64,000 nt of DNA from the NCBI RefSeq assembly GCF_964204645.1, contig NC_134026.1, positions 16,588,150-16,652,149 of the forward strand. Direction: 5' to 3'. This DNA comes from Tubulanus polymorphus (lineage: Eukaryota; Animalia; Nemertea). Position 1 is the first letter of the stretch; every line of letters starts with the position of its first letter. Below are positions 8,334 to 64,000 of the stretch, piece after piece. Position numbers and translations under genes: made by a program. The notes below the pieces were generated by a model that was given only the letters and a program-made list of their open reading frames with translations, searched no databases and was not told the DNA's origin.

Positions 8334-8364
8334 CAATATCACAACTAATTTTTTTGTTATGTAA

Positions 8365-21673: not shown

Positions 21674-21681
21674 TAAAATAA

Positions 21682-22050: not shown

Positions 22051-22056
22051 AACAAG

Positions 22057-22725
<669 letters not shown>

Positions 22726-30809: not shown

Positions 30810-31559
30810 TACTCATACTATTCTTCCAATCATTTCATTGAATTTTGGATTTATAACTTTTGGATTTTCTATGACATTTTCTGTACCAATATGGTAAATT
30901 GCGTATTTATGATTCAATTGTTTGTCATATATTACATATTCTGTACATTTTTCACAGCAAGATTTAAATACCTGTATTGCATGGGATGAATCATTTCCAC
31001 CTTTGGTTTATAATTTATAATGTTTTGACCAATTAGCCTTTATTATACATTCATTACAGAAGGCGCAATAATTTTGATCTTTGCATTTATCTTTATATAT
31101 ATATCAGCATATATTTTTACTAATTGTAAAATATGTTCATCTTTTTTGACGTGCGATAGATAATCATTATTATTATTATTATAATCTTCTTCATAATACA
31201 TACATCTAATTATATCTTCTATTTTAGATTCAATATTATCTTCTATTTTAGTTTCATTATTAGCTTCTATTTCAGTATCAATATTATCTTCTTTTTTTTT
31301 GTTTCAATATTATCTCCTATTTATGTTTCAATATTGTAATTATTAGATGTAGAAGGTATATTATCTATATTATCATTATTATTATCTTTTTATTTATATC
31401 ATTATAACGTTCAATTAAATATTCTTTGTATTGATTTAAATCATTTAATAAAAATGTTCCAATATATTCATTTATTCTTTTATAAGGTATTACATAATAC
31501 AAATCATCATTGATTTCTTTATCATCTTTGATTCTTTCATATAACTTACCTGCCTCCAT
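30810..31559 (-). pseudogene. Polinton hypothetical protein with Cys motifs
   Basis: TAAATG start MEAGKLYERIK; later YCAFCNEC and SCCEKC in shifted frames. Confidence 0.45.
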
Positions 31560-31596
31560 TTATTATATAAATTTTTATTAAAACTAAAACTGAAAG

Positions 31597-32782: not shown

Positions 32783-32805
32783 TTATTGAACAAAAAATTA
32801 ATTAT

Positions 32806-33217
32806 TCATTTTTTATCATATTCACTTACCAAAAAAATAATAGCACTTATAACTGTAATTAAAAATAAAATAATATGTTCCGAAGCAAAGTTAAGAGTAT
32901 TCCCAGCAGATTTTAAAACAAAACCAACAATTGATGCAATAATTCCTGGTAATGCTGCAGCAGATTTTTTAGATAGTTCCCATAAATATTTTGCTAATTT
33001 TTTTAATCCATCTTTCACTTTATCTTGTATAGAATTATTATCATTTAGGGGTTTATCCGGTTTATTTGGAGTAGGCGAAGAATTTAATGAATTTGATATT
33101 GCTAAACCTATTGTTGTAAATAACATAGTTACAGCTGTTAGAATTGAAAGAATTGTGATACCTTCTAGTTTAAATAATAATCTTATTCTATCTTTCAATG
33201 ATATTTCAGAATTTAAT
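32806..33217 (-). pseudogene. Protein Y C-terminus, copy C
   Basis: NSEISLKDRIRLLFKLEGITILSILTAVTM...KKSAAALPG. Confidence 0.85.
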
Positions 33218-33300
33218 GTTAAGTGCGATTCATACGTTTGATAATCAATGTTACGCAAACTACATAATAAGCCATAAGCTACTTAAAATATGATACTTAC

Positions 33301-34267: not shown

Positions 34268-34430
34268 CTGAAAAAGACAGAAAAGATCCAAACGAAAACA
34301 TTCATATTCATTCATATCAAATGAAATGACCGGTGGTGAAGATCGGCGGTCCGACTTCACACTCGGCTATCATATCTAACCAAATTGATCCAGAGATTCT
34401 ATCTCAATCAATCGAAGGATTGAAACTTAC

Positions 34431-34979
34431 CTGAATGTATTCTACTTTCGATTTTCTTTACAAATGATGTTATTGTGAAGCTCATCAGAATGATGGGTAG
34501 CTCAATAATGTATACACTTGGCAATGCCATGCGTAATATATCATTAGATGATAGTGGGGAAAGGCTGTAGATGGACACTTCCTTCTTCCACAAATTTAAA
34601 ATTTCGTCGCGGGTTGCAGAAAAATCGGTTGCATAACCACTTCCAACAATGATCAACACTTTCTTGGCATCTTCTCGAACACCGAATTGGAATATTTCAC
34701 TTGTTGCAAATGAAAGTGCAGAGTCTAGTCTGGAACTTTGGCCTATCCATGTCCATTTGGCCATAGATCGCAGGATGTCCTCTGTATTGTCGTAAGTGTC
34801 TAGATAAGCGCTGACCTCGGGCATGGAAGAATAGATGGAAACAGAGATATGGTTCCCAGTTAACGAGGCTTGGAACACTCTCACTAAATCCTTGGTTAAT
34901 TCGAATAACGACTGCCATTGGCTGCGAGATACACCCTCCGATGCATCAAGCATGATAGCTATATCCAATTTATTGGCCG
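34431..34979 (-). CDS. Host VWA/EGF gene: VWA domain exon 1
   Basis: tcttttag|CGGCC...ATTCAG|gtaagt; 549 nt; KLDIAIMLDASEGV, ISVSIYSS, GVREDAKKVLIIVGSG. Confidence 0.9.
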
Positions 34980-35071
34980 CTAAAAGAGATTCATAAACAG
35001 ATCGTGAACTTAGAAAACTGAAATAAATGTAAGGATAGAAGAATAAAAACGCCGCGTTGACCGCAACTTAC

Positions 35072-38143: not shown

Positions 38144-40170
38144 ATGTCTGGCAACACCGTTCTTATTAAAATCAACAACTCGTTTCAAAATATCAGAGTA
38201 CTTGTAGATACCGGGGCCTCCGTTTCTATTTTAAGCCAAGCAAAGCTTTCGAGACTCGAAGTTCCTGACTCTGCTATTGATCGGGCAAATATTAAATCGG
38301 TTAGCGGAGTTGGTGGACAGAAAACTAACGTGCTTAGTAAAATTCATTTGGCGATTAAAATTGAAGGTGTTGCCTTTCGTCACGACTTCATTCTCTTGCC
38401 AAGTTGTCAAAATCCAATTATACTCGGTGATGACTTTTTACTTCACCACAGTGCAAAGGTTAAATATTGGCACAATACACGCACACTAAACGCTTAGCTA
38501 TGATACAATTATAGCTCCTATCACATGTAGTAGCTCGCACCTGAAACGCATTAAAATCCCGGCTAGATCTGAGTAATTCCGTTAAACCTAACTCGCATTC
38601 CGGACGTGGTTACCGCTCATATACAGCCACATCCAAACATTAGGTCAATGCTATTAGCTGGATCACAATGTGTCGTGCAATCATGTAGAAATACAAACCC
38701 GATTATGAGCATAACTAATCCAAACGATTACTCAATTGCGATACCGCGTAATACTGTTGTGGGCCTCGTGGCTGTAATTGACCCCGAAGATGTAATTTCA
38801 TTAGTTGACATGTCTCCTCCTAGTTCTGAAGCAAATTCTAAAAACAAACCAGTTCAAAAAGAACCAGTAAAATTTAATCTACCATCAGAGGACGACATGA
38901 CATCGAAAGAGCGAGAACGGCTACAAGAATTTTTGAATCAGAATCGAGACCTTTTCTCTGATGATTTAGATTCATTAGCTAGAACTGAACGCGTTGCTCA
39001 TAAAATAGAAACCCTTGCTGACCAAGAGCTGGTAAGACTTTTGCCATATCGACAAAACCCAGAAGCTAAAGAAAATCTAAACAAAATATTAGATGAATTC
39101 TAACACTCTAATATATGTGCACCGAGCACTTCTAATTGGCATAGCCACGTTGTTTTTGTAAAAATGCGTAAATGCGAAGTATTTCACTTCTCTCAAGGCA
39201 GTTTCCAATGGACCCTGAAACTAGACATAAAGCTGCTTTTATGTCGCCTAATGGTATATTCGAATGAAATAGACTACCATTTGGTCTCAGGAATAGTCCA
39301 ATCACGTTCCAAGCTCTTATGGCCGATGTTTTGAGTAAATTTCAAAATCGCACTTTGCTACGTCGACGATATCTTAATTTTCAGTCCCGATTTTGAAGCT
39401 CATTTGAAACACCTAAATGAAATTTTCAATAGGTTACGCAACGCAGGCCTAACTCTTGAAACGTCTAAATGTTTCTTTGCAATGCCATCATTTCATTACC
39501 TAGGATACATTATGTAGCGTGAAGGTTTTCAAACCGACCCTGAAAAGACTAAAATTATCAATTCGTTCCTAGTTCCTACTAAACAAAAGGAAGTGCGTCG
39601 TTTCTTGGGTCTGGCTAATTTCTACTGTTGCTTTGTTAAAGGCTATTCGAATATCGTCGCACCTCTCAATAGATTGCTTCACAAAAACACACCGTTCAAT
39701 TGGACTAAAGAGTGTCAAGATGCTTTCGAGAATATGAAACAGGCACTGGTTTCGGCTCCAATTCTAGCTTACCCCAACCTAAACAAACCATTTGTGCTAA
39801 CTACTGATGCTTCCACAAATGGAATAGCATACATCTTGAGCCAAATCATTGAAGATGACAAAGAACGCCCTATAGCATATGGTGGTAGAGCCCTTCGACC
39901 AAACGAACGGAACTGAAACACACCTGAACAGGAATGTTTAGCCGTAGTAGAAGGCATACAGCACTATAAGGAATATTTGACCGACCAACCTTTCAAAATT
40001 ATAACCGATCATATCGCCTTGAAATGGTTAGCTGATGTGAAACAAGATAAGAATAGGCGTCTACACCAACGTCTACTACAATCGTATAATTACGAAGTCA
40101 TCCACAGACCTGGTGTTAACAATACCAACGCGGATCTCGCATACCAACACCAACTACAATCGCTACACCT
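38144..40170 (+). pseudogene. pol remnant: aspartic protease, reverse transcriptase, RNase H
   Basis: VLVDTGASVSIL; LPFGLRNSPITFQ; YVDDILI (~39359); RRFLGLANFY; LTTDAS; IITDH. Confidence 0.92.
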
Positions 40171-40499
40171 GTAAACACCATGTCTCCATGACTCCGACTT
40201 AATATAGCTTGTTTGATCGAATACTATTGGTGCTGTCCATCGTTCGAACTATTCAGAAATCACTCACCACTTACTTTCCTTGCTCTTCATCATCACGGTT
40301 CAGTTACTTTGTGCTATAACCTAACAGCTGGGGTTAATTGTCACACTCATCTTCTACATCTCGTATCTTTTTAGATCTCATACTAAGTGGTATAATGGCG
40401 TTATTCTGGATACTGTTATTCACTCGATTCGCTATGACATCATCTTCGACAGTCATTCAACGATTAAACTATGGCTTGATATTCAAATAAGTCGGAAAC

Positions 40500-42260
40500 A
40501 TCGAAATGTCAAACGAATACTGGACACACACCTTCCAGACCGAATTACCTACGACAGACTTTACGCGCTACGATATTCGCAGCTGCCATGACACGGAAAA
40601 CGCCACTGTCAACTGAAAAACCGTGCAGTATACATGCTTATGCAAATACGCTCCAAGACAATCGCACGCATTAACGAAACGCTCAACGTAATTCAAACCT
40701 TGATACAAGAAGCCCCTGTTCCATCGAAACGATCAAAACGGTCAGCACCTCTTTCATTTATCGGGTCTTTCAGTAAAAGTCTTTTCGGCACGGCAACTAT
40801 GGACGACATAAAAATCTTGGCCCAACACATTTCAAAACTCACAGCCCGCTCAAATTCACTTTCTTCTGCTGTTTCACAACACGGCGATCATTTCTCTTCA
40901 TACGCTAATCTTGTGTCTCGACGGACGGACCGAGCTTTCAAAGCTATCAGAGAGAACTTCCATCAAATAAAAGTTCTGCAATCGAACATCCAATATCACA
41001 TTCAAGATGAAGAAAGTGCAACTGATCAATTGGACGCTTTATTGTCAAGCCAACTTCAACAAGCAGAAGGCATTTCTATAGCAATGGAAGAGCTAAAAAA
41101 TATCAATCGCTACACTTCACTATAACAAACTGTCACCTTTGTTGATACCTACACAAAACTTCAAAGTGGCTCTCGCGTCACTTCAGAGTTGCAGCGTTAC
41201 TACCATAACCAATACATTGTACGGACGGAGACATATTTTTATTACGAAAACACCCGATCGATTTATTTTAGGAACGCTTCACAATTATACGTCACATTGC
41301 GTATCCCTATATCTTCTTACAAATCCCCGTTAAAACTTTTCAGCATCACATCTCTTCCAGTTCCTATAAATAAATCTGATTCTAAAGCAACCAAATTACT
41401 TGATCTTCCTCCGCATATAGCCATCACAGATGACCGACAGTACCATACTGCACCTTCGCATGATAATGTTCGCGATTGCAAGAAAAAGAAAAAGTTCCTA
41501 TGTCCGTTCAATTTAGCTATGACGTCATCTTTGAAACCCTCATGTGAATATGCAATTCTTTACAACATTGTCAAAGCTATACGCGAGGTTTGTGACCTCC
41601 GGATTGTAATCAACGCTATTAAATCGCGGATATTGAAGTGTCACCTGGCATTGTCTTAGTTTACCGAAGCCCTGTGATCACTATTGATTGTTTGAATGAC
41701 AAACGAGAAGTTCAAGAATTTTGCGAATTTTGTATCAATAAGATTCCATGTTTCTGTGCCATCCACGCTAATGATCTCGATTTGTTTCCGCGCTCTAGTT
41801 CCTGTCACAATAATTTGCCTCTGACTGTATTACATCCTGTGAACCTTGCACTCCTCCATGCATTTTTTGAGAATGACCCTTCGGTTGCAGCATTGACATG
41901 TGAAACTACATCTGACAAACCACTTTCAGTGCATATCCCTGACTTTAATGTTTACAACCATTCTATGTCGCAACTTCTCGCAAACCACCGACAAGATGAC
42001 TTAAACGCATTACCAAAGCCATCAAGGACGGTCGTCGCATTTACGCTTCGCTATCATCACCACTACTGACTGGTGATCTGTCTACTTGGACCACGTGGCC
42101 TCACTTTAACGGCATTCTAACATTAGCTGCCCTCGGACTTAACATATTTGTGCTATTTACTTGTGTATTTCTTTTTAAACGCTATCAAATGGTTGCTACA
42201 GCACTACTGTTGATCCAGAAAGGTTCAAACTCTGGTGTTATTGCTGCAGCAGCCCGGCTC
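40500..42260 (+). pseudogene. env-like class I fusion glycoprotein remnant
   Basis: Furin-like site RSKR followed by fusion-peptide-like SAPLSFIGSFSKSLFGTAT; heptad region; Cys-rich ectodomain; TM GILTLAALGLNIFVLFTCVFLF. Confidence 0.75.
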
Positions 42261-42729
42261 GGGCTGGCGCCATCGTCTATTACTTTTTCAAAGAAAGAAT
42301 GTATTTTGTAGTGAAAGCTAAGCTAGGACCAAAGAAATTGCTACACTTACTGAGTTCGAGACGCAAAATTAGATAGCCATTATAATCGTCACAAACGAAC
42401 AAACTCTAAGCGAACTAAGAGCCGCACGAATGTCAAATGAATTGCTCACCATTTTGTGACTCACAAAACTACGTCAGAGGTGCCGAAATTCCCGGGAATT
42501 CCGAGAATTTCCCGTATTGACGTCTGAAACACAATATAGGTCAACACAAGTAACTTGTAGAAAGCGAAGAATTTTCGATATTTTTCGTTTTGAAGCTTAC
42601 CGGCCTGACCTCCGCGCATCAATTCTACTAGCTTCACGATAAAAGACAACCCCGTAAGTATGACCACTAAATTTTGTGCTGCGATTTAACATAATCTTGG
42701 CAGACTGCCAACCAACAGCCATGACATAG

Positions 42730-43810
42730 GTAAACCAATAATAATAGAATATATCTATGCAGATAATGTTTACATAAATTCAGTAATGAAAGTGCATCAT
42801 TAGATTTATAAGCAAGTATATGTGATAATTATGATTATTGTAAATTAATTTTACCAACAGTAAAAGATGATAAATTAGAATTTGAAAAGTATGAATATAA
42901 GAATAAGTACCATTTGTAATATATGGAGATTTCGAGTCATTGAATAAGGAATTAACTGATCAAGATAGAAACGAATTATATTATAAAGACATAATTTAAA
43001 TTCTAATTCTGATGGAAATAATTATTCAGATCGTTCAATAACATATACTATCAAAATAATTCATCAAAGTGCTGCAGCTTTCCGATTGTATAATAAATCT
43101 GATTATCCAAAACTAATTAAAAGTTAATTGAATATGAAATGAAAATTAAGTAAATTATTAGATACAAATATAGAAATTATAATGACAGAAGATGATGAAA
43201 TACAATTTGATTTTGCTGATAAATGTTATTATTGTGAAAAGATATTTAATTTTAAAGATAAAAAAGTTAGAGATCATGACCCCAATCATTTGAATGGTAG
43301 ATTTAGAGGTGCAGCACTCTTCTTTGAAAATTGTAATTTGCAAGCTAAGAAAATTAATTTTGTTATATTTCATAATTTATCAGGGTATGATGCACATTTA
43401 TTTATTAAACAACTATGTCATAAAATAGAAGAAATCAATAACGAAATAAAAACTCTAAATTCAAATAGATCAAAAGATGTTGTTAAAATACCAACTCATG
43501 AATTTAAAATGCTAGCTGAAACATCTGAAAATTATAAATCTTTCCAATTTGGATGTTTAAGATTTATAGATTCTCATAGATTCTTAACTAGTTCATTAGA
43601 TAATTTATCAAAATCATTAGTTGATGATGAATTAAAAATATCAAAAGAATATTTTCCAAATGATAATGATTTCCAATGAATGTGATACAAAGATGCGATT
43701 CCATATTCTTTTTATAAAAATCATAATGATTTTAGAATGAAATAACGATTAAAGTAACAATTCTATCATCAATAAAAAATGAAGATGTAAAAGATGAGGT
43801 TTATAATAGA
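42730..43810 (+). pseudogene. Protein-primed PolB fragment (exonuclease region), copy D
   Basis: IYGDFES, CYYC...VRDHD...GRFRGAA...CNL, IFHNLSGYDAHLFIK, LRFIDSHRFLTSSLDNL. Confidence 0.88.
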
Positions 43811-44139
43811 AATGGTCTATTGTACTAAATGCCTTTTGAGGTCAAGCAGAATTAGTACAAATTAGTGCTCCATCTTCAAGGTTTTTAGTGTGCTTCGCTG
43901 ATAATGTTACCAAAACAATGCTAAATCTGTTGAATAATTTTTCCGAAAGCACTGTATGTCAGATAGAACCAAGGGTTTAGGACAAAAGTTCAATAATCGA
44001 TTATATATGAGTTTTCCTACAATTTTTAAAGATTAGTATAGAATTGAGCAAGGACGATAGTTCAGCTTGGCGCGCGTCACCAGATTTAAAGATAGGTACA
44101 ACTCTTACCGTTTTGCGATATCCTAAGTATAGATTTTAC

Positions 44140-44882
44140 CATATAGTATAATCAACTAAAGTTCGTCGTCTATCTCGAGGTAAATAGCATAATTCATTTA
44201 TAGCTGGTCATCTATATCTCTAACAAAACATTACCCATCGTCTATATTGGATGCATAGTATAATTGATTATAGCTCATCGTCTCGACCTTTCGAGCAAAC
44301 ATAACCCGTCGTCTATTTTGGTTACATAGTATAATTGACTTTAGCTCGTTGTCTTTTTCGAGCTAAACATTATCTGTCGTCTTTTTCGGGTGCATAGTAT
44401 AATTAATTATAACTCGTCACCTTTTTCAAACAATCATAACCCATCGTCTATTCCGGGGGCATAGTATAATTGATTATAGGTCGTCTATTTCGACCAAAAC
44501 AGTACCCGTCGTCTATCTCGGGTACATTAGCTCGTCGTCTATTTCGACCAAAACATTACCGTCGTCCATCTCGGGTACATAGTATAATTAATTATAGCTC
44601 GTCGTCTTTTTCGAGGAACCTTTACCCGTCGTCTATCTCGAGGTAAATAGCATAATTCATTTATAGCTCGTCGTCTATATCTTTAACGAAACACCACCCA
44701 TCGTCTATTCCGGGGGCATAGTTTGATTAATTATAGCTCGTCTATTTTGAGCAAAGCATTACCCGTCGTCTAGTTCAATTAATCATAGCTCGTCGTCTAG
44801 CACGAGTAAAACATTACCCGTCCTCTATCTCGGGTAGATAGAATAATTAATTATAGCTCGTCATCTATCTCGAGCATAGATT
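44140..44882. repeat. Degenerate minisatellite (~60-65-bp unit)
   Basis: Recurring TAGTATAATT(G/A)ATTATAGCTCGTCGTCTATTTCG...TACCCGTCGTCTAT; duplicated at 49749-50491. Confidence 0.9.
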
Positions 44883-44889
44883 ACCCCTC

Positions 44890-45455
44890 AACCTCTGGTG
44901 CAGAGGGTCAACCACAGGCCCTCTTTTTATCGACCTTTTCAGGGATCGCCTTACATTATGCGCCAATTTTATCGTCACATGAAGTCGCCTTTGGAATGTT
45001 GTAAGCCGAACCCATCGTTGAATACACACACACACCTACACACAGCGGCTCGAGGTATACCTGATGTCCACATCAAGGCTGCTGGTAGACGGAGCTCGGA
45101 GGCTTACCGGAAATATAAACACTTGCTAGATAACGTTACAGCTGGGGCGCAACTCTGGATCATCTGTTTTGACTCTTTAAGATTCGTGTTTGACACTCAT
45201 ACCTCCTATTGCAGCTGGGGCGCAACTTGGTATCATATACAGGCTTTAGGAACGTTCAGTTCATCCGCTGCTATGACAACCATTGTTGTCTTGGCCTAAT
45301 TACCATGATGTGATTGCCATGGTAACGAGTATTTTAACATTTAATTCCTAGTAATTTTAATTAGGCCGAGCAGCTGGGGCGTTTGACATATGTTTATTGT
45401 AAATATTGTATATTTTGTATTCTAATAATAAATGTCAAGCAGCTGGGGCGCTTGG
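44890..45455 (+). mobile_element. DIRS/Ngaro-type tyrosine-recombinase retroelement 3' remnant
   Basis: AARGIPDVHIKAAGRRSSEAYRKY matches the YR C-terminal GRW-S-x-A-Y-x-x-Y box; followed by four CAGCTGGGGCG repeats; duplicated at 50499-51064. Confidence 0.7.
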
Positions 45456-46108
45456 CCATTTTCAATTTAAAATCATCGACCTTATCATTCTTTCTCGTTG
45501 CAAACTCGTTGCAAAGAGATAACTTTTGCGCATAAAGGAAAAATGTGCAATAAGGATTAAATGTATACAGCACTATAAGGAATATTTGACCGACCAACCT
45601 TTCAAAATTATAACCGATCATATCGCCTTGAAATGGTTAGCTGATGTGAAACAAGATAAGAATAGGCGTCTACACCAACGTCTACTACAATCGTATAATT
45701 ACGAAGTCATCCACAGACCTGGTGTTAACAATACCAACGCGGATCTCGCATACCAACACCAACTACAATCGCTACACCTGTAAACACCATGTCTCCATGA
45801 CTCCGACTTAATATAGCTTGTTTGATCGAATACTATTGGTGCTGTCCATCGTTCGAACTATTCAGAAATCACTCACCACTTACTTTCCTTGCTCTTCATC
45901 ATCACGGTTCAGTTACTTTGTGCTATAACCTAACAGCTGGGGTTAATTGTCACACTCATCTTCTACATCTCGTATCTTTTTAGATCTCATACTAAGTGGT
46001 ATAATGGCGTTATTCTGGATACTGTTATTCACTCGATTCGCTATGACATCATCTTCGACAGTCATTCAACGATTAAACTATGGCTTGATATTCAAATAAG
46101 TCGGAAAC

Positions 46109-47869
46109 ATCGAAATGTCAAACGAATACTGGACACACACCTTCCAGACCGAATTACCTACGACAGACTTTACGCGCTACGATATTCGCAGCTGCCATGA
46201 CACGGAAAACGCCACTGTCAACTGAAAAACCGTGCAGTATACATGCTTATGCAAATACGCTCCAAGACAATCGCACGCATTAACGAAACGCTCAACGTAA
46301 TTCAAACCTTGATACAAGAAGCCCCTGTTCCATCGAAACGATCAAAACGGTCAGCACCTCTTTCATTTATCGGGTCTTTCAGTAAAAGTCTTTTCGGCAC
46401 GGCAACTATGGACGACATAAAAATCTTGGCCCAACACATTTCAAAACTCACAGCCCGCTCAAATTCACTTTCTTCTGCTGTTTCACAACACGGCGATCAT
46501 TTCTCTTCATACGCTAATCTTGTGTCTCGACGGACGGACCGAGCTTTCAAAGCTATCAGAGAGAACTTCCATCAAATAAAAGTTCTGCAATCGAACATCC
46601 AATATCACATTCAAGATGAAGAAAGTGCAACTGATCAATTGGACGCTTTATTGTCAAGCCAACTTCAACAAGCAGAAGGCATTTCTATAGCAATGGAAGA
46701 GCTAAAAAATATCAATCGCTACACTTCACTATAACAAACTGTCACCTTTGTTGATACCTACACAAAACTTCAAAGTGGCTCTCGCGTCACTTCAGAGTTG
46801 CAGCGTTACTACCATAACCAATACATTGTACGGACGGAGACATATTTTTATTACGAAAACACCCGATCGATTTATTTTAGGAACGCTTCACAATTATACG
46901 TCACATTGCGTATCCCTATATCTTCTTACAAATCCCCGTTAAAACTTTTCAGCATCACATCTCTTCCAGTTCCTATAAATAAATCTGATTCTAAAGCAAC
47001 CAAATTACTTGATCTTCCTCCGCATATAGCCATCACAGATGACCGACAGTACCATACTGCACCTTCGCATGATAATGTTCGCGATTGCAAGAAAAAGAAA
47101 AAGTTCCTATGTCCGTTCAATTTAGCTATGACGTCATCTTTGAAACCCTCATGTGAATATGCAATTCTTTACAACATTGTCAAAGCTATACGCGAGGTTT
47201 GTGACCTCCGGATTGTAATCAACGCTATTAAATCGCGGATATTGAAGTGTCACCTGGCATTGTCTTAGTTTACCGAAGCCCTGTGATCACTATTGATTGT
47301 TTGAATGACAAACGAGAAGTTCAAGAATTTTGCGAATTTTGTATCAATAAGATTCCATGTTTCTGTGCCATCCACGCTAATGATCTCGATTTGTTTCCGC
47401 GCTCTAGTTCCTGTCACAATAATTTGCCTCTGACTGTATTACATCCTGTGAACCTTGCACTCCTCCATGCATTTTTTGAGAATGACCCTTCGGTTGCAGC
47501 ATTGACATGTGAAACTACATCTGACAAACCACTTTCAGTGCATATCCCTGACTTTAATGTTTACAACCATTCTATGTCGCAACTTCTCGCAAACCACCGA
47601 CAAGATGACTTAAACGCATTACCAAAGCCATCAAGGACGGTCGTCGCATTTACGCTTCGCTATCATCACCACTACTGACTGGTGATCTGTCTACTTGGAC
47701 CACGTGGCCTCACTTTAACGGCATTCTAACATTAGCTGCCCTCGGACTTAACATATTTGTGCTATTTACTTGTGTATTTCTTTTTAAACGCTATCAAATG
47801 GTTGCTACAGCACTACTGTTGATCCAGAAAGGTTCAAACTCTGGTGTTATTGCTGCAGCAGCCCGGCTC
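46109..47869 (+). pseudogene. env-like remnant, duplicated copy
   Basis: Identical to 40500-42260. Confidence 0.75.
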
Positions 47870-48338
47870 GGGCTGGCGCCATCGTCTATTACTTTTTCAA
47901 AGAAAGAATGTATTTTGTAGTGAAAGCTAAGCTAGGACCAAAGAAATTGCTACACTTACTGAGTTCGAGACGCAAAATTAGATAGCCATTATAATCGTCA
48001 CAAACGAACAAACTCTAAGCGAACTAAGAGCCGCACGAATGTCAAATGAATTGCTCACCATTTTGTGACTCACAAAACTACGTCAGAGGTGCCGAAATTC
48101 CCGGGAATTCCGAGAATTTCCCGTATTGACGTCTGAAACACAATATAGGTCAACACAAGTAACTTGTAGAAAGCGAAGAATTTTCGATATTTTTCGTTTT
48201 GAAGCTTACCGGCCTGACCTCCGCGCATCAATTCTACTAGCTTCACGATAAAAGACAACCCCGTAAGTATGACCACTAAATTTTGTGCTGCGATTTAACA
48301 TAATCTTGGCAGACTGCCAACCAACAGCCATGACATAG

Positions 48339-49419
48339 GTAAACCAATAATAATAGAATATATCTATGCAGATAATGTTTACATAAATTCAGTAATGAAA
48401 GTGCATCATTAGATTTATAAGCAAGTATATGTGATAATTATGATTATTGTAAATTAATTTTACCAACAGTAAAAGATGATAAATTAGAATTTGAAAAGTA
48501 TGAATATAAGAATAAGTACCATTTGTAATATATGGAGATTTCGAGTCATTGAATAAGGAATTAACTGATCAAGATAGAAACGAATTATATTATAAAGACA
48601 TAATTTAAATTCTAATTCTGATGGAAATAATTATTCAGATCGTTCAATAACATATACTATCAAAATAATTCATCAAAGTGCTGCAGCTTTCCGATTGTAT
48701 AATAAATCTGATTATCCAAAACTAATTAAAAGTTAATTGAATATGAAATGAAAATTAAGTAAATTATTAGATACAAATATAGAAATTATAATGACAGAAG
48801 ATGATGAAATACAATTTGATTTTGCTGATAAATGTTATTATTGTGAAAAGATATTTAATTTTAAAGATAAAAAAGTTAGAGATCATGACCCCAATCATTT
48901 GAATGGTAGATTTAGAGGTGCAGCACTCTTCTTTGAAAATTGTAATTTGCAAGCTAAGAAAATTAATTTTGTTATATTTCATAATTTATCAGGGTATGAT
49001 GCACATTTATTTATTAAACAACTATGTCATAAAATAGAAGAAATCAATAACGAAATAAAAACTCTAAATTCAAATAGATCAAAAGATGTTGTTAAAATAC
49101 CAACTCATGAATTTAAAATGCTAGCTGAAACATCTGAAAATTATAAATCTTTCCAATTTGGATGTTTAAGATTTATAGATTCTCATAGATTCTTAACTAG
49201 TTCATTAGATAATTTATCAAAATCATTAGTTGATGATGAATTAAAAATATCAAAAGAATATTTTCCAAATGATAATGATTTCCAATGAATGTGATACAAA
49301 GATGCGATTCCATATTCTTTTTATAAAAATCATAATGATTTTAGAATGAAATAACGATTAAAGTAACAATTCTATCATCAATAAAAAATGAAGATGTAAA
49401 AGATGAGGTTTATAATAGA
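48339..49419 (+). pseudogene. PolB exonuclease fragment, duplicated copy
   Basis: Identical to 42730-43810. Confidence 0.88.
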
Positions 49420-51199
49420 AATGGTCTATTGTACTAAATGCCTTTTGAGGTCAAGCAGAATTAGTACAAATTAGTGCTCCATCTTCAAGGTTTTTAGTGT
49501 GCTTCGCTGATAATGTTACCAAAACAATGCTAAATCTGTTGAATAATTTTTCCGAAAGCACTGTATGTCAGATAGAACCAAGGGTTTAGGACAAAAGTTC
49601 AATAATCGATTATATATGAGTTTTCCTACAATTTTTAAAGATTAGTATAGAATTGAGCAAGGACGATAGTTCAGCTTGGCGCGCGTCACCAGATTTAAAG
49701 ATAGGTACAACTCTTACCGTTTTGCGATATCCTAAGTATAGATTTTACCATATAGTATAATCAACTAAAGTTCGTCGTCTATCTCGAGGTAAATAGCATA
49801 ATTCATTTATAGCTGGTCATCTATATCTCTAACAAAACATTACCCATCGTCTATATTGGATGCATAGTATAATTGATTATAGCTCATCGTCTCGACCTTT
49901 CGAGCAAACATAACCCGTCGTCTATTTTGGTTACATAGTATAATTGACTTTAGCTCGTTGTCTTTTTCGAGCTAAACATTATCTGTCGTCTTTTTCGGGT
50001 GCATAGTATAATTAATTATAACTCGTCACCTTTTTCAAACAATCATAACCCATCGTCTATTCCGGGGGCATAGTATAATTGATTATAGGTCGTCTATTTC
50101 GACCAAAACAGTACCCGTCGTCTATCTCGGGTACATTAGCTCGTCGTCTATTTCGACCAAAACATTACCGTCGTCCATCTCGGGTACATAGTATAATTAA
50201 TTATAGCTCGTCGTCTTTTTCGAGGAACCTTTACCCGTCGTCTATCTCGAGGTAAATAGCATAATTCATTTATAGCTCGTCGTCTATATCTTTAACGAAA
50301 CACCACCCATCGTCTATTCCGGGGGCATAGTTTGATTAATTATAGCTCGTCTATTTTGAGCAAAGCATTACCCGTCGTCTAGTTCAATTAATCATAGCTC
50401 GTCGTCTAGCACGAGTAAAACATTACCCGTCCTCTATCTCGGGTAGATAGAATAATTAATTATAGCTCGTCATCTATCTCGAGCATAGATTACCCCTCAA
50501 CCTCTGGTGCAGAGGGTCAACCACAGGCCCTCTTTTTATCGACCTTTTCAGGGATCGCCTTACATTATGCGCCAATTTTATCGTCACATGAAGTCGCCTT
50601 TGGAATGTTGTAAGCCGAACCCATCGTTGAATACACACACACACCTACACACAGCGGCTCGAGGTATACCTGATGTCCACATCAAGGCTGCTGGTAGACG
50701 GAGCTCGGAGGCTTACCGGAAATATAAACACTTGCTAGATAACGTTACAGCTGGGGCGCAACTCTGGATCATCTGTTTTGACTCTTTAAGATTCGTGTTT
50801 GACACTCATACCTCCTATTGCAGCTGGGGCGCAACTTGGTATCATATACAGGCTTTAGGAACGTTCAGTTCATCCGCTGCTATGACAACCATTGTTGTCT
50901 TGGCCTAATTACCATGATGTGATTGCCATGGTAACGAGTATTTTAACATTTAATTCCTAGTAATTTTAATTAGGCCGAGCAGCTGGGGCGTTTGACATAT
51001 GTTTATTGTAAATATTGTATATTTTGTATTCTAATAATAAATGTCAAGCAGCTGGGGCGCTTGGCCATTTTCAATTTAAAATCATCGACCTTATCATTCT
51101 TTCTCGTTGCAAACTCGTTGCAAAGAGATAACTTTTGCGCATAAAGGAAAAATGTGCAATAAGGATTAAATGTATTATGAAATTAATTAGGTTAACCAA

Positions 51200-54100
51200 A
51201 TGTACTTCAATTAACACATGTAGAAAACGAATTGACAGAAGAAGTGAGATATTGTTTTGAAATATTTTTAAAGGTACAACAATAGAAGATTATAGTAATT
51301 ATATTGAAGTAATGGAAAAAATAATGGACCTTGTAAAAGATGTTGAATATCAAAAAATTTTTATCTCTCGAAAAGTAAGTTTTATGAAGTCAGAAAAGAA
51401 GAAAAAATGGAGTACAACATTCAAACACACTTAGAAGAAAATTTCAAAAATACAAATAAAAGAGAAGTTAGAAATAATGTTTAATGAATTTAAACGCCGT
51501 ATTGAAGAAAGATATTTTGAATGTTCTGGTTTAACATTGAATGAAATTATATTTTTAGATTTGAATATTTTTGACATAAAAAGAATAAAACATTAAAAAG
51601 TAATGACATTTTTTACAAATAATTCAAACTTTACAACAGAAAAGGATATTGAAGCATCATCTTCTAATAAACTATCATTTCCAACAAAAAAGATATGAAT
51701 TTTCAAAATGAAGATAATAAATGTTTTCTATGGTCAATTATAAGTTGTCTACATCCAACAGAAGAACATGTTTAAAAAATAACAGATTTTTTGGAAATAT
51801 GAATCATCATATTAAATTGGCCAATACCCAGTAACTATAAAAATGACTCCTAAAATAGAAAAAGTTTTTGATTTAAAAATAAATGTATTCGAATTAATGC
51901 AATTACCAGAGACAAAAGGTGAAAATATTTAAGATTATACATTAGAAGCTTTAACAAAACATTATGATGATGAAAATGTTATATATTTATTATACAAAAA
52001 AATGATGAAAATGAACATTATATGTGGTTAAAACAGATCGATTTATTCTTTAGAACAGAAAGTGATCTTCATCGTAAGATTTATCTATGTAGAAAATGTT
52101 TATCTAAATTTATGACAGAGATTGCATTATCAAAACATAAAGAGTTATGTGATGATAACGATTTTTGTAAATTAATAATGCCAACAGAAAAGATTATAAA
52201 TTAAAATTTGCTAATCATGAATTTAAGAATATTGTTCCATGTGTAATATATGGGGATTTTGAATCGTTGAATAAAGAATTAACTGACCAAGATAGAAAAG
52301 AAATATACAAGAAAAAGCAATTATTAAATCAATGGATAAAGGAAATGAACTAAATGAAGACATAATACAGACCCACCAATTATAAGTACAATTTGAAAAG
52401 TTCATCATAGAGCTGCTGCGTATGGAATTTATATAAAATCAAATTATCCTGATATCCTGAATTACATGAAAGTCAATATATTTCTTTTAGATGTGAATAT
52501 GTAGTAAATGATTTTTGTAATATAACAAAATAATCGTAACAAAAGAAGATCATGCAACCCATTGTTGTTATTGTGAAAAACGTTTTTATTCATTTCCTAA
52601 ATAAGTTAAAGATCGTGATCATTTTAATTCCAAATATCGTGGAGCTGCTCATGAAGATTGTTACTTACAAGCTTAGGAAGTTAATTTCGTACCAATTTCA
52701 TTTCATAATTTATTAGGGTATGATGCCCATTTATTTATGAAACAATTATCAGGAGAATTAGGTGTAATCAATGACGAAATAGAAGAATATAATGCTATAA
52801 ATGATGCAAGTGTAAGAAAATATGATTTTAAACTATTAGCTAAGACAAAAATTATATTTCATTTCAATTTGGGTACTTTCGATTTTTTGATTCTTATAGA
52901 TTTTAGCAAGTTCATTAGATAATTTAGCAAAAAGTTTAGTTGACAATAATTTCATAATAACGCGATATTATTATCCAGATGAACAAGACTTAAAATATTA
53001 AGAAATAAAGGTGCAATACCTTACTCATTTTATAAAACGCACGATGATTTTAAAGAAACAAAATTATTGAAAGAACAATCTTCTGATCAATTAAAAAATG
53101 AGTGCGTGACAGATGAAGTTTTCAATAAAACAGAGAAGTCAGAGAAGTTAATTTAAATCATTTTAATGATGACCCTTGTTATTGGTATTCAAGTCCTGGT
53201 TTAACCTGGCAATGTGGTTTAAAATATACAAATGTTGAATTAGATTTATTAAAAGAACTATTAATTCTAGAACTAGAAACTTAAAAGAACCAGACATGGT
53301 TTTATTATTTGAAAAATCTATTAGAGGTGGAATAAGTGGTGTTATGGGTGATAGGTATTTTATAGCAAATGATGAAAATAAATCATTATATATTGACGCC
53401 AATAATTTATGTGGTTGGGCAATGATGCAACCTCAACCAAATGAAAATGTTATATTAACAGAAGTTGAAAATGATGATAAAACTGATTGGGGAAGTGCAA
53501 TTATGAGTTTAAAAGATGGTTATTTCATACTAGTTGATTTAGAATATCCTGATAACATAAAGTTTTAATCAAAAAACTTACCTTATTGCCAGAACATTTA
53601 GCCGTAGATGATAGTTATTATCTAAGTGAATACCAGAAAAAAATAAAACCGAATGATCGTGTCTTATCTGAAAACTTAATACTAACACAAAATAATGAAT
53701 ATAATTATATTGCTCATTATAGAATGTTAAAATTTTACTTAACTCATAAAATTAAATTTCAAAAAGTACATAGATATATTGAATTTAATCAATCGAAATG
53801 CTTAGAAAAAATATATATAGGTTTCCATACTCAACAGTGAACCATATCCAAAACAGATTTTGAAAAAGACTTTGTTAAAAATGATGAATAATAGTTTTTA
53901 TGGAAAAACATGTGAAAATATTAGAAATAGAAATGATATTGAATTAGTATATAATTCTGAACGATTGAGACATTTACAATCAAGTCCTAGACATTTAGGA
54001 AATAAAAGATTTGAAGATTATTTAACAGCAGTAAAATTAAAAACAACGTCAATGAAATTTAATATACCTATATTCATTGGTTCAACTGTTTTAGAAATAA

Positions 54101-55679
54101 CAATATCATTAATGTATGATTTTTATTATACTGTTTTACAACCACTTTTTGGGGAAAAGCATATTGAAATATTATATTTTGATTTTTTAACAGCTGATAA
54201 CCCAATATTATTAAAATACAATAACCAAATATTATTTGGAAGAATTTCAGAAATAATTCCAAAACAAAATGAACTTTATATTTCATATGGTGAAAAAGAA
54301 TTAATACAAATAAATGGATTAATGGATGACAAGAAATGGATGGAAAAAATTAAAGAATATTATTAGGCATAAAACAAATAAGAAAATCTATAGAGTTAGA
54401 ACTAAATTAGGATTCGTTGATGTTACTGAAGATCATAGTTTAATTAAACAAAATGGTGATGAAATAAAACCAACTGATATAAAAATTGGAGAAGAATTAT
54501 TACATAAAGGATTTTACCCAAGAATGGATCATATGTCATTTGATGAAATAATTGATAATATTTATAATAGAGAACCTGAAACATTAGAAGAAAAAGAATA
54601 TTTTATCAAAGGATTTTTTATGGGTGATGGTTCAGCAGGTGTGTAAAAGTATGTTAATCACACTGAATATTGTTGGTGTTTAAGCAATCAAAATTTGAAA
54701 TTATTATAAAGAATAAAGAAATACTGTGAAGAAGTTTATCCATAAACATATAAATAAAACATTTAAAATCATAGATGTTATGAAATCATCAGCAGTTTAT
54801 AGAATACATGTTAATAATCTTAAATTTTGCAATTAAATATAATGATGAATTCTATATTCATGCAATAGTTAAAAGTAATATTTCAACTAAAGAAAAGATA
54901 ATACCAGATTATGTATTAAACCCAAAAGATAATTTAAGAAAATGGTTCTTCATTGGATTCTATGCTGCAGATGGCACTAAAAAATTTACAAAACAGAAAA
55001 CTATATCTTTGACATAAAAATGAAAAGTTGCTATATCAGGATTAAATATATTATGCAATTCATTGGGTTTTAATATGAATATTGGATTGATTAAATCTAA
55101 ACCAAATTGCTTTAATTTAAGGCACACAGAAAAAGATTTAACTGAAGAAGTTAGAGATTTATTTGAAATATCCAATCCAACAGTTTATGTTTATGATTTA
55201 CCAACTGAAGATGGAACATTCAATTCTGGGTTTCCATTGGTGACTTTCAATACTGACAGTTACATATTAAAGATAAAAACTAATAAGATAACGAAAGACT
55301 TAAAAACATTAAAACATCATTTTGACTTAAGCAATTATCCAAAAGATCATGAAGTATTTAGCAATGATAATAAAAAAATTCCTGGTAAATTTAAAGATGA
55401 ATTAGGGGGCGATGAAATGATTGAATTTGTTAGGATAAGAAGTAAAATGTATAGTTATAGAACAAAAGATCATGAAGCTAAAAAGTTAAAAGGAATAACA
55501 AAACATGAGGTTGATAAACACATAGAATTTCAATTGTAATGAAACATAAAATGAATTGTTTAAGATCAGAAGATCACGAGATGTACATTAATGAAGTTGA
55601 AAAAACTAGTTTAAATCCGTTCGATGATAAAAGATATATTTTGGGTGATGGAATAAAAACATTACCTTATGGCCATTAA
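51200..55679 (+). pseudogene. Protein-primed family B DNA polymerase, copy E, with intein
   Basis: NEDNKCFLWS, FHNLLGYDAHLF, SIRGGIS, YIDANNLCGWAM, KMMNNSFYGK, YFD|TDS, PGKFKDE, RSKMYSY, KLKGI, FDDKRY...LPYGH; many frameshifts. Confidence 0.93.
54184..55251 (+). mobile_element. Intein with LAGLIDADG homing endonuclease inserted in PolB motif C
   Basis: Flanked by YFD and TDS; block A (F)LTADNPILL, block B VDVTEDHSL, LAGLIDADG FIKGFFMGDG and FFIGFYAADG, blocks F/G VYDLPTEDGTF...VTFN followed by +1 Thr. Confidence 0.9.
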
Positions 55680-55724: not shown

Positions 55725-56985
55725 TTTTAATTTAATTGTTTAGGTTCCTTCATTTTATTTTCCTCATCTAAATAAAGTTCTATATTATTCCACATTTCAT
55801 CTAGCTTTCTTTGTTTCTTTTTGTTCGTTAATTCATCAAATGGAATTATAATATCGATGTTTAAAAAATGTACAATCTTATTTAAACAGAATTCATAAAT
55901 TGATTGAATCTGTCATTTTATTATCCACATAATATTTTAATATGTTTGTGAATGTTTCTTTAATATTTTCCATATCTTCTTTTGTTAATTTAGGTTTTTT
56001 ATAATGATCGTAAAATAATAAATGTAAATACATTTTCTTTTTTTTAATGTTACATGTTGATGCAATAATTGTTTTTATTATATCTTTCTTAGTTATTTCA
56101 CCATTTTTATTTTCTATCATTTTCATTTTTTCAAGCCATTGCTTATATTCTGGTGTATGATCTTCCATAGAAAATATCTTAAAAATTTCATCTAGATATT
56201 TTAATTTTGGTTCTATAAGAATATCTCTAGTTTTTTCATCACCCCATAAATTTTTTTGCCATCCACATTCATTACAAAATATCACAGAATCTTTTTGTCT
56301 TAAGTACACATAAATACATTGTGGGCATTTTTTTCTATCACATCTTGGCAATAGATCTTCATTAAGTTCTTGGTATTTTCTTACATTTTCTTTACGTTTT
56401 ATTGTTCTATTATGTAGATTTGAATTACTTGTTGTAATAATCATTTTACAATATTTGCAATAATATGTTATTCTTACTAATTCATTGTATTGTTTTTCCA
56501 ACTTTTCAAGTGTTTCTGCAATATCTGGTAACGTTTTCTCATATGTAATGTTTTCTAATATATTATTTTTTCTTTCATTGAATTCTGCTTCAAATTTATT
56601 AGAAATTTTATCTATATGTGCTTTACGAAATTGATGATTCTCCCAATCTTCTATATTTTCAGGGCTATATTTTATTCGAATATGCTCACAGAAATGATCT
56701 TTTATATTACTCTTATCATAAAATGTAGAAAGGTCTTTTCCAAATAAGTTCAGGTTCAGTTTCAACAGAATTATTATTACTTTCGTTACTATCAACATTA
56801 ACCGTTGATTCATTAATTTTAGTTCTCTGAATGTTTTTTAACATAATTTCTTGAGAATAATTTATTACAATTTGGGCAATTTATGTTAGGGGTTTATAAT
56901 TTTTATCATGTTTTTTCATATGTCGAGCCATATTACTTTTTCTTTGAAGTTCACCACAAATTTTACATTCTATCTTCACATCCAT
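55725..56985 (-). pseudogene. C2H2 zinc-finger protein with VLTF3 (poxvirus A2)-like C-terminal domain
   Basis: ECKICG...RHMKKH; CPQC...FCNECG ribbon; KPKLT...IKETF; after a frameshift, INYEFCLNKIV...LDEMWNNI. Confidence 0.62.
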
Positions 56986-57059: not shown

Positions 57060-57805
57060 ATGGTTGAATAAAAAGAATATAGAATATTTGTTGATTCTAG
57101 AAAACTTACAAATTATAAATCACATAATTAACTAGTACAATAAGATAGGGAATTTAAAAATTGTGTAGATTTAAAATTAGTAAATATAAGTTTATGTAAT
57201 TCTTTTTATGATATATCGGATAAAAGTTTTGATCATAGATCCTTTTTAGTTTTTATTAAAAGTAAACGTAAATGGGTTCATCTTATGCTAACACCAGGAT
57301 CATATGATTTAGAAACATTAGCGCAAGAAATTAATAAAAAAGCTCAGTTTAAAATGGGTAGTGATGCTGGATTTAATATTAGATTTTCTTTAAGTGAAAG
57401 TTCTGATAAAATTAAAATAAAGTTTGATAATGAAAATAAATATGCTTTTGGGGTAAAAAAAAACCTATAGCTAAACTGTTAGATAATCCTCCAGATGATA
57501 TTATTTTAGGAAACTATGTAAAAGGTAAATCAAACTTAATGCCTTTTACACGCTTTTATATTTATTGCAATTCAATTGACCCTGTAAAAACTTTCGAAGC
57601 AACTAAAGATACAATTTGTAATTCTAGTATATTAAATATTTTACCATTAAAAAATTTTAAACAATTTGGAACGCAAATGAATTATAATTTAGCAGAATGT
57701 GATTTCAAACCTTGTACTCCAAAATTTAATAATTTTAGATTAGAAATTATAAATCATAATGGTTATTAATTGATTTAAATAACTTTCCTGTGATATATGA
57801 ATAAG
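57060..57805 (+). pseudogene. Putative minor capsid (penton) protein
   Basis: IFVDS, ISLCNSFYDI, LTPGSYDLETL, FYIYCNSI, SILNILP, RLEII...IDLNNFP pattern typical of Polinton/virophage single jelly-roll proteins. Confidence 0.6.
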
Positions 57806-58884: not shown

Positions 58885-60886
58885 ATGGATGATTAAGTTG
58901 ATGATATTGATATTATTCCTCATGATATAAATAAAACTAAATTAAAATTATATATGGAAAAACAAATATTATAATTTAAAAATGATTTTGAAAAAAAATT
59001 AGATCGAAGACACTTTTGTACCAGTTATGAAAACAGATGCGTTTTCAGACGTCGCCTGAAAATCGCTAAGCTGCCAGATGCTCTAATAGAAATAGGGAGC
59101 TTATTCCACATACGTGGAGCAGCACATGAAAAAGAGCGATCTCCAAACGTCGTCAGCCTGCTTCTAGGTTGGGACAAAAGGGGTTCTCCAGAAGATCTTA
59201 ATGAACGACTTGGTATATAAAGTTGAACTAGTTGTTCTAGGTAGGTTGGAGCTAGGCCATGAACACACTTGTATGTTAAAACGAGAAACATAAATTGGAT
59301 TCTTTTCTCAACTGGAAGCCAATGAAGGCTTTTCAAAACTGGGGAAATATGGTCACCTCTTGGAGTGCCAGTCACAAGGTGGGCAGCATTATTTTGAACT
59401 CTTTGTAAAAGGGGAAGTGTGGTTTGCGGAATACCAATGAGTAGAGCATTGAGCCCATCCATCCTAGAATTAACTAATGCATTTATAAGAGTAAGTGCAG
59501 CATCAGTTGTAATGTACCTCCGGATGAGCCCAATGTTCATCAAATGAAAGTAGCAAGATTTACAAATATTTCTGATGTGATTATCCATGGACATGTGTTC
59601 ATCAAAATAACCACCCAGATTTCTTGCGACACTACTCCTTTGAATCATGTGATTACCAACATTTACAGCTGTTGGCAGGGCAGAAAAGTTCTGTTGACGA
59701 GAATGGATGATCAGAAATTCAGTCTTGTCATGATTAAGTTTTAAGAATTTCTAGCCATCCACTCTCGAACCTATGCAATACAAGTCTCAAGTTTAGAGAT
59801 TGCATCTACACTATCAGCAGGATGGAAACAAATGTAGAGCTGGCTGTCATCAGCAAAAAAGTGGTAACAGATACCATGTTTACGAATTATTTCGCCTAGT
59901 GGGCTCATGTAGATCGAAAACAGCAAAAGGCCTAAGACAAAACCCTGCGGTACACCAGTACCAAGCCTACAAGGGGAAGACATGTGACCATCAACACAAA
60001 CGCATTGAGTTCTATTGTCCAAGTAGGACCTAAACCAATTAAGTGCGCTACCTTCTAACCCAAGACAGTCTTTTAGTCGATTAAGAAGAACTTCATGATT
60101 GACAGTATCAAATGCTGCTGATAAATCGAGCAGCACCAATCCAACTACCTGCTTCTTGTCAACGGCACACAGAATTTCGTTTTGCACCCTGACTAAGGCG
60201 GTTTCGCTGCTATGCCCAGCTCTGTAGGCTGATTGTAGGCACTCATAGAGGCCGTTATCTGACATATGATGGCGAAGTCCATTCGCAACTACCTTCTCTA
60301 AAATCTTGGATAAGAAACCAAGGTTAGACACAGGCCGATAATTATCTCAAAACATGGCGGTCCAACGTCGGTTTCTTAAGAAGCGGGGTAACAGTTGCCT
60401 GTTTGAATTCTGTGGGAACAGTATCACTTGAAAGGAATCATTGACAATGTTACAGACTACTGGAGCTATACATGGTAGAACACTAAAATTCTTAAGTAAA
60501 TGAGTCGGTATGGGGTCTAAAATACAAGTTTTAGATGGCGAACACATAATTAACCTTTGTATTTCACTAACAGATGCTAGATATTTAAAAAGTAAAATCC
60601 TATATTATTTTATTATTAGTAGTTCAGTTACAATTAGTTCTGTAATAACATTTCTAGCATTATTCTCACCATTAACACCTTTAGCTATCTCAATTGGAGC
60701 TTTAGGTTTAAGTTCAAGTGTATTAACCGGCATAAGTTCAAAATTAGATATAAAAAGTAATAAAGAAAAAATAAAATCTAATATAAAAGAAATTAATGAA
60801 TTAAAAGATACATGAAATAATAAGTTTGAATGGTAATATAACATTGAAGAACGAGTTAAATTATCAAAAGAATTAATAGATTATTA
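58885..60886 (+). pseudogene. Polinton membrane protein split by a LINE insertion
   Basis: TAAATG start at 58885; resumes near 60575 with hydrophobic LYYFIISSSVTISSVITFLALFSPLTPLAISIGALGL. Confidence 0.5.
59002..60574 (-). mobile_element. 5'-truncated LINE (L2/CR1-group) reverse transcriptase
   Basis: KTCILDPIPT, RPVSNLGFLSKILEK, QSAYR, LLDLSAAFDTV, GVPQG, FADD, LHWLPVEKRI, FRRRLKTHLF. Confidence 0.93.
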
Positions 60887-63656: not shown

Positions 63657-64000
63657 ATGAGTGGGAGTTATATAAATCCTTCTAAGAATTCTAGAATATC
63701 TAATGCTATTAAAGCAGAGAGATCTCATCATATAATTACTCATAATCCTTCTAATATTAATGCTGATGAAACTTTATATGTTAGAATCCCGAGATTAAAT
63801 CAAAATACTTTTTACGTTCCAAATAGTATTTATTTGTCAGCTGATATAAATGTAACTGGTAATAATAATAATTATGTTGTAGATAATGTTGGGAGATATT
63901 TGATTAAAAAATTAACTATTAAGATTGGACCAGAAACAGTTTTCTCATTACATGTTTATAATTTATTTATGCATTTATGGTTAACAAAAGAAATTAGAAA
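63657..64000 (+). pseudogene. Major capsid protein N-terminus, copy E (partial)
   Basis: MSGSYINPSKNSRISNAIKAERSHH... as at 5046. Confidence 0.85.

Follow-up and report, generated by a model that had tools for sequence, protein, structure and literature searches.

Introduction

Inteins excise themselves from a precursor protein and rejoin the flanking sequences, the exteins (PMC549080), and those with an endonuclease can home, the nuclease cutting an empty allele whose repair then copies the full one (PMC10710043). Except where a whole text or supplement is named, the papers cited in this article are represented by excerpts, and what we say of them refers to those excerpts. The closest described relatives of the insertion reported here are the motif C inteins found in the PolBs (DNA polymerases of family B) of Mimivirus, other giant viruses and archaea (PMC549080), which share with it the insertion site, a length of about 350 aa, a Ser start when intact, a TxxH motif, two LAGLIDADG motifs, a terminal Asn and a +1 Thr. 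Inteins have been described as well from Klebsormidium, Tetrabaena and a labyrinthulomycete, whose nuclear scaffolds encode the viral-like DNA polymerases that contain them (Gallot-Lavallee et al. 2023, PMC10710043). These likewise reached the eukaryotic nucleus within an endogenous virus but, unlike the present case, in algae and a protist; the words "animal", "metazoa" and "maverick" are absent from the text of that paper, and "polinton" from its supplements. According to reviews, metazoan genomes lack inteins (PMC5784728; PMC8529194). The Chilo iridescent virus intein (cited in PMC549080) also resides in an animal-infecting virus, but that virus is a lytic, large DNA virus rather than an integrated multicopy element, and its intein ends in Gln.

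The element family that houses our insertion, in a likely animal genome, shares with Polintons and adintoviruses (Starrett et al. 2021, PMC8502044) a protein-primed PolB (pPolB), an rve integrase, an A32 ATPase, a likely capsid gene and a division of PolBs into two distant classes. "Intein", "LAGLIDADG" and "homing" are absent from the text of that paper, and "intein", "LAGLIDADG" and "Hint" from its supplement. Nuclease domains inside Polinton polymerases are known as HNH and VSR inserts (Jeong et al. 2023, 10.1101/2023.08.22.554363; Krupovic et al. 2024, PMC11071308), and it has been suggested that the HNH-type inserts arose from intein invasions (PMC11071308). In the excerpts these inserts are described as nucleases only, lacking a splicing domain, whereas the intein presented here combines a complete Hint domain and a LAGLIDADG endonuclease in the polymerase active site and has empty alleles. 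The preliminary description of this DNA was unaware of any precedent, and we likewise found none: neither protein-primed PolBs nor Polintons nor animal genomes are reported to contain an intein in the openly accessible literature, as represented by excerpts of PMC12220804, PMC11071308, PMC3671162, 10.1101/2023.08.22.554363, 10.1101/299784, PMC5718144, PMC5784728, PMC8502044, PMC11131425, 10.64898/2026.10.13.758929 and PMC10643990; subscription journals, bioRxiv supplements, RepBase or InBase may contain such a report.

Results

A LAGLIDADG intein in motif C of a Polinton polymerase

In the window, as we call the whole 64,000-nucleotide stretch of DNA analysed, motif C of a PolB is interrupted by 1068 nt lying exactly between YFD and TDS (Table 1). 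Every intein motif that had been placed there in the preliminary description was found in position, the blocks following in order but spread over three frames. The block B TxxH, the block F Asp, the terminal Asn and the +1 Thr are all kept, and the block A nucleophile (Ser or Cys) is missing, the first residue being Phe. With three frame changes (near 54313-54328, 54743-54758 and 54807-54825) and five stops (54644, 54707, 54743, 55015 and 55021), the open frame through the intein is broken and this copy is a pseudogene. Judged from its sequence, it can neither splice nor cleave. The GC content of the insertion is 24% and that of its flanks 25-26%.

Of 366 candidates, 224 matched an unbroken piece of 107 aa (54323-54643) at E<=0.001, well above what chance would give, the closest of them with 72-80% identity (E 1e-46 to 1e-51); the Mimivirus PolB intein is 50% identical over this piece. 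The 120 matches listed are nearly all intein-bearing family B polymerases or topoisomerases. Against Pfam the broken pieces score weakly and fall short of the curated thresholds (Intein_splicing E=0.003; LAGLIDADG_3 E=0.027 and 0.004), and they are weak against NCBIfam as well. The 107-aa piece, the intact relatives and the fold of one of these, P0003, all bear out the proposed LAGLIDADG endonuclease, and the insertion is confirmed as a LAGLIDADG intein in a decayed Polinton protein-primed PolB.

Table 1. Features of the intein-bearing polymerase and its element (window coordinates)
Feature	Position	Strand	Basis
Related Polinton copy	2454-9165		rve-chromo integrase (E=3e-10) and Pox_A32 ATPase (E=5e-11) at 6323-8056
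N-extein, decayed Polinton/adintovirus protein-primed PolB of the HNH-insert class	51267..54183	+	tblastn of P0003, P0395, P0396 and P0398
N-extein motifs	exonuclease motif I 52246; HNH-like insert 52611; motif A 53389; motif B 53881	+	motif positions
Motif C, first half, ILYFD	54169-54183	+	motif positions
Intein, Hint domain with internal LAGLIDADG endonuclease	54184..55251	+	protein matches, precise read skip and fold of intact relative P0003
Block A, FLTADNPILL, first residue not a nucleophile	54184-54213	+	sequence
Block B, VDVTEDHSL, with TxxH	54416-54442	+	sequence; H87 invariant in 49-row intein alignment
LAGLIDADG-1, FIKGFFMGDG, with acidic residue	54602-54631	+	sequence and weak profile match
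LAGLIDADG-2, FFIGFYAADG, with acidic residue	54946-54975	+	sequence and weak profile match
Blocks F and G, terminal Asn at 55251	55183..55251	+	block F VYVYDL at 55183-55200
C-extein, Thr-Asp-Ser start to polymerase end	55252..55679	+	71-80% identical to P0395, P0396 and P0398
C-extein TDSYIL, second half of motif C	55252-55269	+	sequence
Likely major capsid gene start, same element	63657..64000	+	Capsid_N E=0.07 (weak, for 63657-63998); 81-85% DNA identity to 2577-5398

The host polymerase is of Polinton type, as had been proposed. P0003, which passes the PF03175 cut-off together with P0123, P0241 and P0005, aligns along 51267-55676, nearly its whole length, and relatives of the N-extein match PF03175 and Endonuclease_7. 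The Mimivirus PolB, P0050, matches the window within the insertion only and is 19% identical to the flanks; an assignment of the flanks to RNA-primed giant-virus PolB (PF00136/PF03104) was thereby ruled out. The closest flanks are those of the intein-free P0395, P0396 and P0398 (59-80% identical in the catalytic half and grouped with the window extein with support 100), whose motif C reads an uninterrupted YFD/TDS, the slash marking the insertion site. The HNH-like insert of the window polymerase sits 1.5 kb upstream of the intein. Many frameshifts and stops interrupt the polymerase around the intein, mostly in the N-extein, the C-extein having one stop and a frame change near 55537.

Comparison with the giant-virus motif C inteins, Mimivirus included, bears out the shared site that had been recognized earlier and reveals homology throughout the intein (39-46%). 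Unlike the Mimivirus intein, that of the Polintons resides in a protein-primed polymerase (flanks 16-23% identical), in a small integrating element with many chromosomal copies, and forms a clade of its own.

The surrounding element

The integrase and ATPase genes are seen in the related copy and were not seen in the intein-bearing copy itself; the two share 81-85% identity over the downstream part of the intein-bearing element. Within the related copy, 5046-6188 has no Pfam match. A candidate minor capsid ORF (57440-57766) has atlas matches that all score below 0.9, with no usable lead. Among the ORFs listed, none stood out as an adenovirus-type protease. Neither terminal inverted repeats nor a target-site duplication were found in 39000-64000; the intein-bearing copy is truncated near 51265, and its other end lies beyond the window. 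Related families have left additional Polinton fragments, with integrase-chromo, ATPase and likely capsid sequences, at 2454-9165, 20036-22748, 26821-27884 and 31046-33282, so that the window is a nest of decayed copies.

Other features accompany these copies. A LINE reverse transcriptase fragment (RVT_1 E=5e-25) is inserted in the Polinton copy on the minus strand (59025-60346), and beside the polymerase, also on the minus strand (55893-56837), is an ORF of 314 aa, nearly intact, that encodes a zinc finger of U1 type (E=1e-4) as well as another cluster of Cys residues. Upstream, 39956-45566 and 45565-51175 form a perfect tandem duplication of 5611 nt (100%), which is either an assembly artefact or a very recent duplication. 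It holds an LTR-retrotransposon envelope-like gene (Baculo_F E=2e-8), a degenerate array of ~70-nt repeats and a second pPolB fragment; this N-terminal fragment (42728-43811 and again 48337-49420), with 67% DNA identity to 52079-53130, stops before motif C. VWA-domain stretches lie on the minus strand at 34408-35067 and 19100-19801, the first matching collagen VI alpha 3 best (E=9e-20), and LINE, LTR and DDE elements are also present in the window. These features, the collagen-VI-like stretch foremost, are what point to a likely animal host.

Intact relatives and predicted activity

Complete intein-bearing pPolBs are P0003, P0005, P0123, P0136 and P0137, and partial ones are P0001, P0002, P0004, P0272 and P0491. 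All five complete inteins retain Ser1, TxxH, both acidic LAGLIDADG residues, the terminal Asn and the +1 Thr, and the block F Asp is present in these five and in the window. The penultimate His occurs in three of the five, being absent from P0003 and P0005 as well as from the window and Mimivirus. The LAGLIDADG_3 cut-off is passed by all five; that of Intein_splicing is reached by P0123 alone, and the remaining four, like Mimivirus, score below it or lack a match. Modelled from a 49-row alignment (pLDDT 89.4, pTM 0.90), the P0003 intein has a Hint fold enclosing a two-motif LAGLIDADG domain. Its best matches are the endonuclease-bearing archaeal inteins TliVMA and PI-PkoII (PDB 7qsu, 7qss and 2cw7; E 7e-18 to 7e-16), and a profile search agrees (PI-PkoII E=7e-15). 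Intact copies with these residues would self-splice and restore the polymerase.

Carriers are few. Among the 120 nearest polymerases five bear the intein (four detected by profile, plus the truncated P0491), and none of 56 further cluster members does. A search of viral contigs with the whole of P0003 found no relative among 57 stretches. Scans with the P0003 intein turned up 37 loci in viral data and 131 in metagenomes, 80 of the latter being kept, and the flanks of these 117 loci were RNA-primed PolB in 106, neither type in 11 and pPolB in none. A protein library clustered at 50% identity gave 2058 matches, the 150 listed adding solely pPolB-type fragments such as P0272. Several of the carriers come from short contigs.

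Related inteins also occur elsewhere, before TDG, CDG or SAA motifs in the topoisomerase II-like P0058, P0060, P0089, P0100, P0102, P0131, P0326, P0378 and P0389, and at PolB motif B in P0121 and P0141. The intein clade would therefore have changed site more than once.

Full and empty alleles

Parts of the stretch occur in four runs of a single study. Of the ten runs listed, three were examined, X1, X2 and X5, the last being raw whole-genome sequencing under the same species label as the best-matching run but from a different study, 12% of it read. With the three combined, every one of the 30 bins of the stretch has coverage. The 5' junction is bridged by contigs of X1 and X2, and X1 matches the left flank without differences. 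In X5, 77 reads with the window's flanks skip exactly the 1068 nt, and a further 63 link those flanks across a recoded site in which Thr-Asp-Ser is nonetheless kept, which makes 140 empty-junction reads, set against 233 over the intein start. One X2 contig also has the exact 1068-nt skip. Intein-bearing and precisely empty copies thus coexist in the Polinton family of the window, and the junctions that had been read from the assembly are upheld by this skip and by the bridged 5' junction. The X5 counts suggest roughly six full copies to four empty ones, a ratio to be read in the light of junction reads being harder to detect and of 48 joints outside those listed. The 3' junction of full alleles was not among the 16 read pieces listed of more than 4400, and RNA data sets were not among the listed matches to the stretch.

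Depth in X5 is 155-240 over the intein and 12-13 over the flank, at least 12 times lower. At position 54185, in the first intein codon, 230 of 233 X5 reads differ from the window, which indicates that the first-codon lesion is rare among copies, and the first frameshift of the window intein is absent in 125 of 185 reads. The persistence of 77 empty-site reads with the window's own flanks implies either that homing is incomplete or that the nuclease no longer cuts.

The P0123 cluster (136 members, on contigs of up to 1 Mb) offers a second view. Its 15 listed members comprise seven full alleles, six empty ones and two fragments, the full and empty forms differing in length by 346 aa. Divergence between full and empty alleles has a median of 0.015 per 30-residue window and rises to 0.31 at the site (rank 1 of 39); among empty alleles it is 0.17 at the site, again rank 1 of 39. 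These ranks refer to a divergence window picked after the alignment had been viewed, in one family; in five control sets, four of them near-identical throughout, the same window is invariant or conserved. Twelve empty alleles (the six of the cluster and six near-full-length ones from two sister clusters, nine shorter ones being omitted) fall into three site types, and none has the site of the full alleles. From sequence comparison, this pattern would be as expected from homing in which flanks are co-converted and resistant sites survive.

Among the empty Polinton polymerases P0390-P0505 the sequence of motif C varies to an unusual degree: YMD/CDS occurs 28 times and others read ASD/TDS, GFD/TDS, FTD/TDS or YID/TDA. 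This variability may record past escape from the nuclease.

Origin of the intein

For the intein trees, 258 full-length inteins were dereplicated to 186, from which a quick tree was built with 80 rows and a bootstrap tree with 45. Both trees are midpoint-rooted and without archaeal rows, so the direction of transfer rests on nesting, and most records of RNA-primed PolB in them are without a named host. All seven pPolB inteins form one clade in the 80-row tree (SH-aLRT 99), as do all six in the 45-row tree (100/99), there on a long stem. This clade is nested among motif C inteins of RNA-primed, largely giant-virus, PolBs. Mimivirus P0050 falls in the same larger clade but outside the group nearest to the Polinton inteins, and is not their sister. 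The nearest outgroup in both trees, as a weak sister, is P0193 (SH-aLRT 85; 80/94), which is Pol-delta-like, its best solved relative being human Pol delta (E=1e-176), and has a weak zf-C4pol match. A C-terminal GFPL motif was considered as a marker of the donor and rejected, as the 18 giant-virus rows with GFPL are not sister to the Polinton clade.

The carrier polymerases behave differently from their inteins. On a 41-row polymerase tree, from which P0005 was left out as too distant, the six carriers fall in five places with five changes, and a carrier clade is rejected (p-AU 0.001); separate intein and extein trees, called for in the preliminary description, thus give one clade for the Polinton inteins and none for the polymerases that carry them. 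Five changes is not below what shuffled labels give (92 of 500 as low), and gain and loss are indistinguishable on this tree.

The window intein is 64% identical to P0003 and 62-68% to other Polinton inteins, as against 39% to Mimivirus, and the best non-Polinton match to its read-through is 41%. Many giant-virus genomes in IMG/VR hold the intein, at 36-42%. Within the HNH-type class, intein and flank identities run in parallel (64/56, 64/63, 77/80, 50/47 and 47/46), which points to long residence, although descent with loss fits too. P0005 departs from this pattern: its intein is sister to P0003 plus the window (98/91) and 48-50% identical to them, with flanks at about 20%, making one transfer between classes likely.

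The single clade on its long stem argues that the crossing from RNA-primed to protein-primed polymerases is old and probably happened once. The intein likely entered Polintons once, long ago, from a giant-virus-type PolB, and a later jump into a second, distant pPolB class is likely from the one record, P0005. The crossing proposed in the preliminary description is therefore retained, given the nesting among inteins of RNA-primed PolBs, as an old and likely single event and not as one into this element. The close likeness to the Mimivirus intein that it noted holds as homology (39%, and 50% in the best piece), but P0003 is closer at 64%.

Discussion

We consider it quite probable that the window holds a broken copy of a LAGLIDADG intein in motif C of an integrated Polinton pPolB, that full and empty copies coexist, that intact copies would splice, and that the intein has likely spread by cutting empty sites. 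We propose a model in which the intein was captured once, in ancient times, from a giant-virus-type PolB inside a co-infected cell, a transfer between polymerase classes that would have been possible because both keep Asp-Thr-Asp at the site. The intein may then have stayed on for a long time, passing repeatedly through homing, decay and loss, as the parallel divergence of intein and polymerase within one class would indicate, and at least one later jump would have reached the second, distant pPolB class (P0005). By the known chemistry of inteins, an intact copy would be translated within the polymerase and then, in the animal nucleus, excise itself and rejoin the catalytic Asp-Thr-Asp. The freed endonuclease could then cut empty alleles, to be repaired from a full allele, with the multicopy Polinton family providing templates and targets in one nucleus. 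Homing of this kind would co-convert the flanks, and empty alleles with altered sites would survive.

It is tempting to go further and see the intein as a gene drive of natural origin within a transposon family, one that actively spreads through the Polinton copies integrated in the chromosomes of animal germ lines and that empty copies escape by recoding active-site codons, and as a record of a giant-virus-type donor and a Polinton in one cell. We hold this fuller reading tentatively, at a little under even odds.

How far the intein is still mobile bears on a quieter history, which strikes us as improbable: a single ancestral entry into Polintons, inheritance with the polymerase and many losses, leaving a passive relic whose endonuclease no longer drives and whose full and empty alleles are old recombining lineages. 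The parallel identities of intein and flanks in the HNH-type class, the presence of the intein in only five of the 120 nearest polymerases and the persistence, in the species of the window, of empty alleles with unchanged flanks would all suit such a history. A relic would not be expected, however, to keep both LAGLIDADG motifs in five of five intact inteins that are 42-50% identical between lineages, nor to have divergence peaking exactly at the site in the P0123 family, and P0005 needs a transfer between classes. As to the donor, the same mechanism could have begun with a nuclear Pol-delta-like virus or with a protist gene rather than with a cytoplasmic giant virus; a Polinton-like virus of protists would have made the capture, and animals would have received its descendants afterwards. 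This is unlikely in our view, though less so than a passive relic; the Pol-delta-like P0193 is the nearest outgroup in both trees and several carriers come from short contigs of unnamed host, but the P0193 link is weakly supported and giant-virus records surround the clade, with P0050 in the larger clade and the IMG/VR inteins at 36-42%.

Homing into this element from a co-infecting giant virus was the origin favoured in the preliminary description, taken here as a recent and direct event with a Mimivirus-like source. The shared site and the identity to the Mimivirus intein (39% overall, 50% in the best-conserved piece) speak for such recent homing, yet the nearest inteins are those of other Polintons, far closer at 62-68% than the best non-Polinton match at 41%, and they form a clade on a long stem to which Mimivirus is not sister; we abandon this origin as very improbable. 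Slighter still is the chance of an artefact, whether a chimeric assembly or a contaminating giant-virus fragment fused to a Polinton gene. The perfect 5.6-kb tandem duplication in the window is a possible assembly error and so lends this some colour, but three runs cover all 30 bins, the 5' junction is bridged, reads carry the precise empty allele, independent intact proteins have the same layout, and the GC content of the insertion (24%) is like that of its flanks (25-26%). What we retain, as the probable history, is an old capture from a giant-virus-type PolB, after which the intein persisted and spread among Polintons.

On this retained reading, a likely animal genome carries many copies of an intein, housed by a virus-like transposon instead of a host gene. 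It would have broken the usual allelic rule of intein homing, having moved from polymerases that are RNA-primed to protein-primed ones, with flanks ~20% identical. Such a crossing would place a Polinton and a giant-virus-type replicon together in one cell at some time in the past, a point of relevance to the idea that Polintons act as virophages. In practice, trees and annotations of Polinton polymerases need to allow for an insert of 350 aa in motif C. The coexistence of full, empty and recoded alleles would make homing, and resistance to it, measurable in a multicopy nuclear family.
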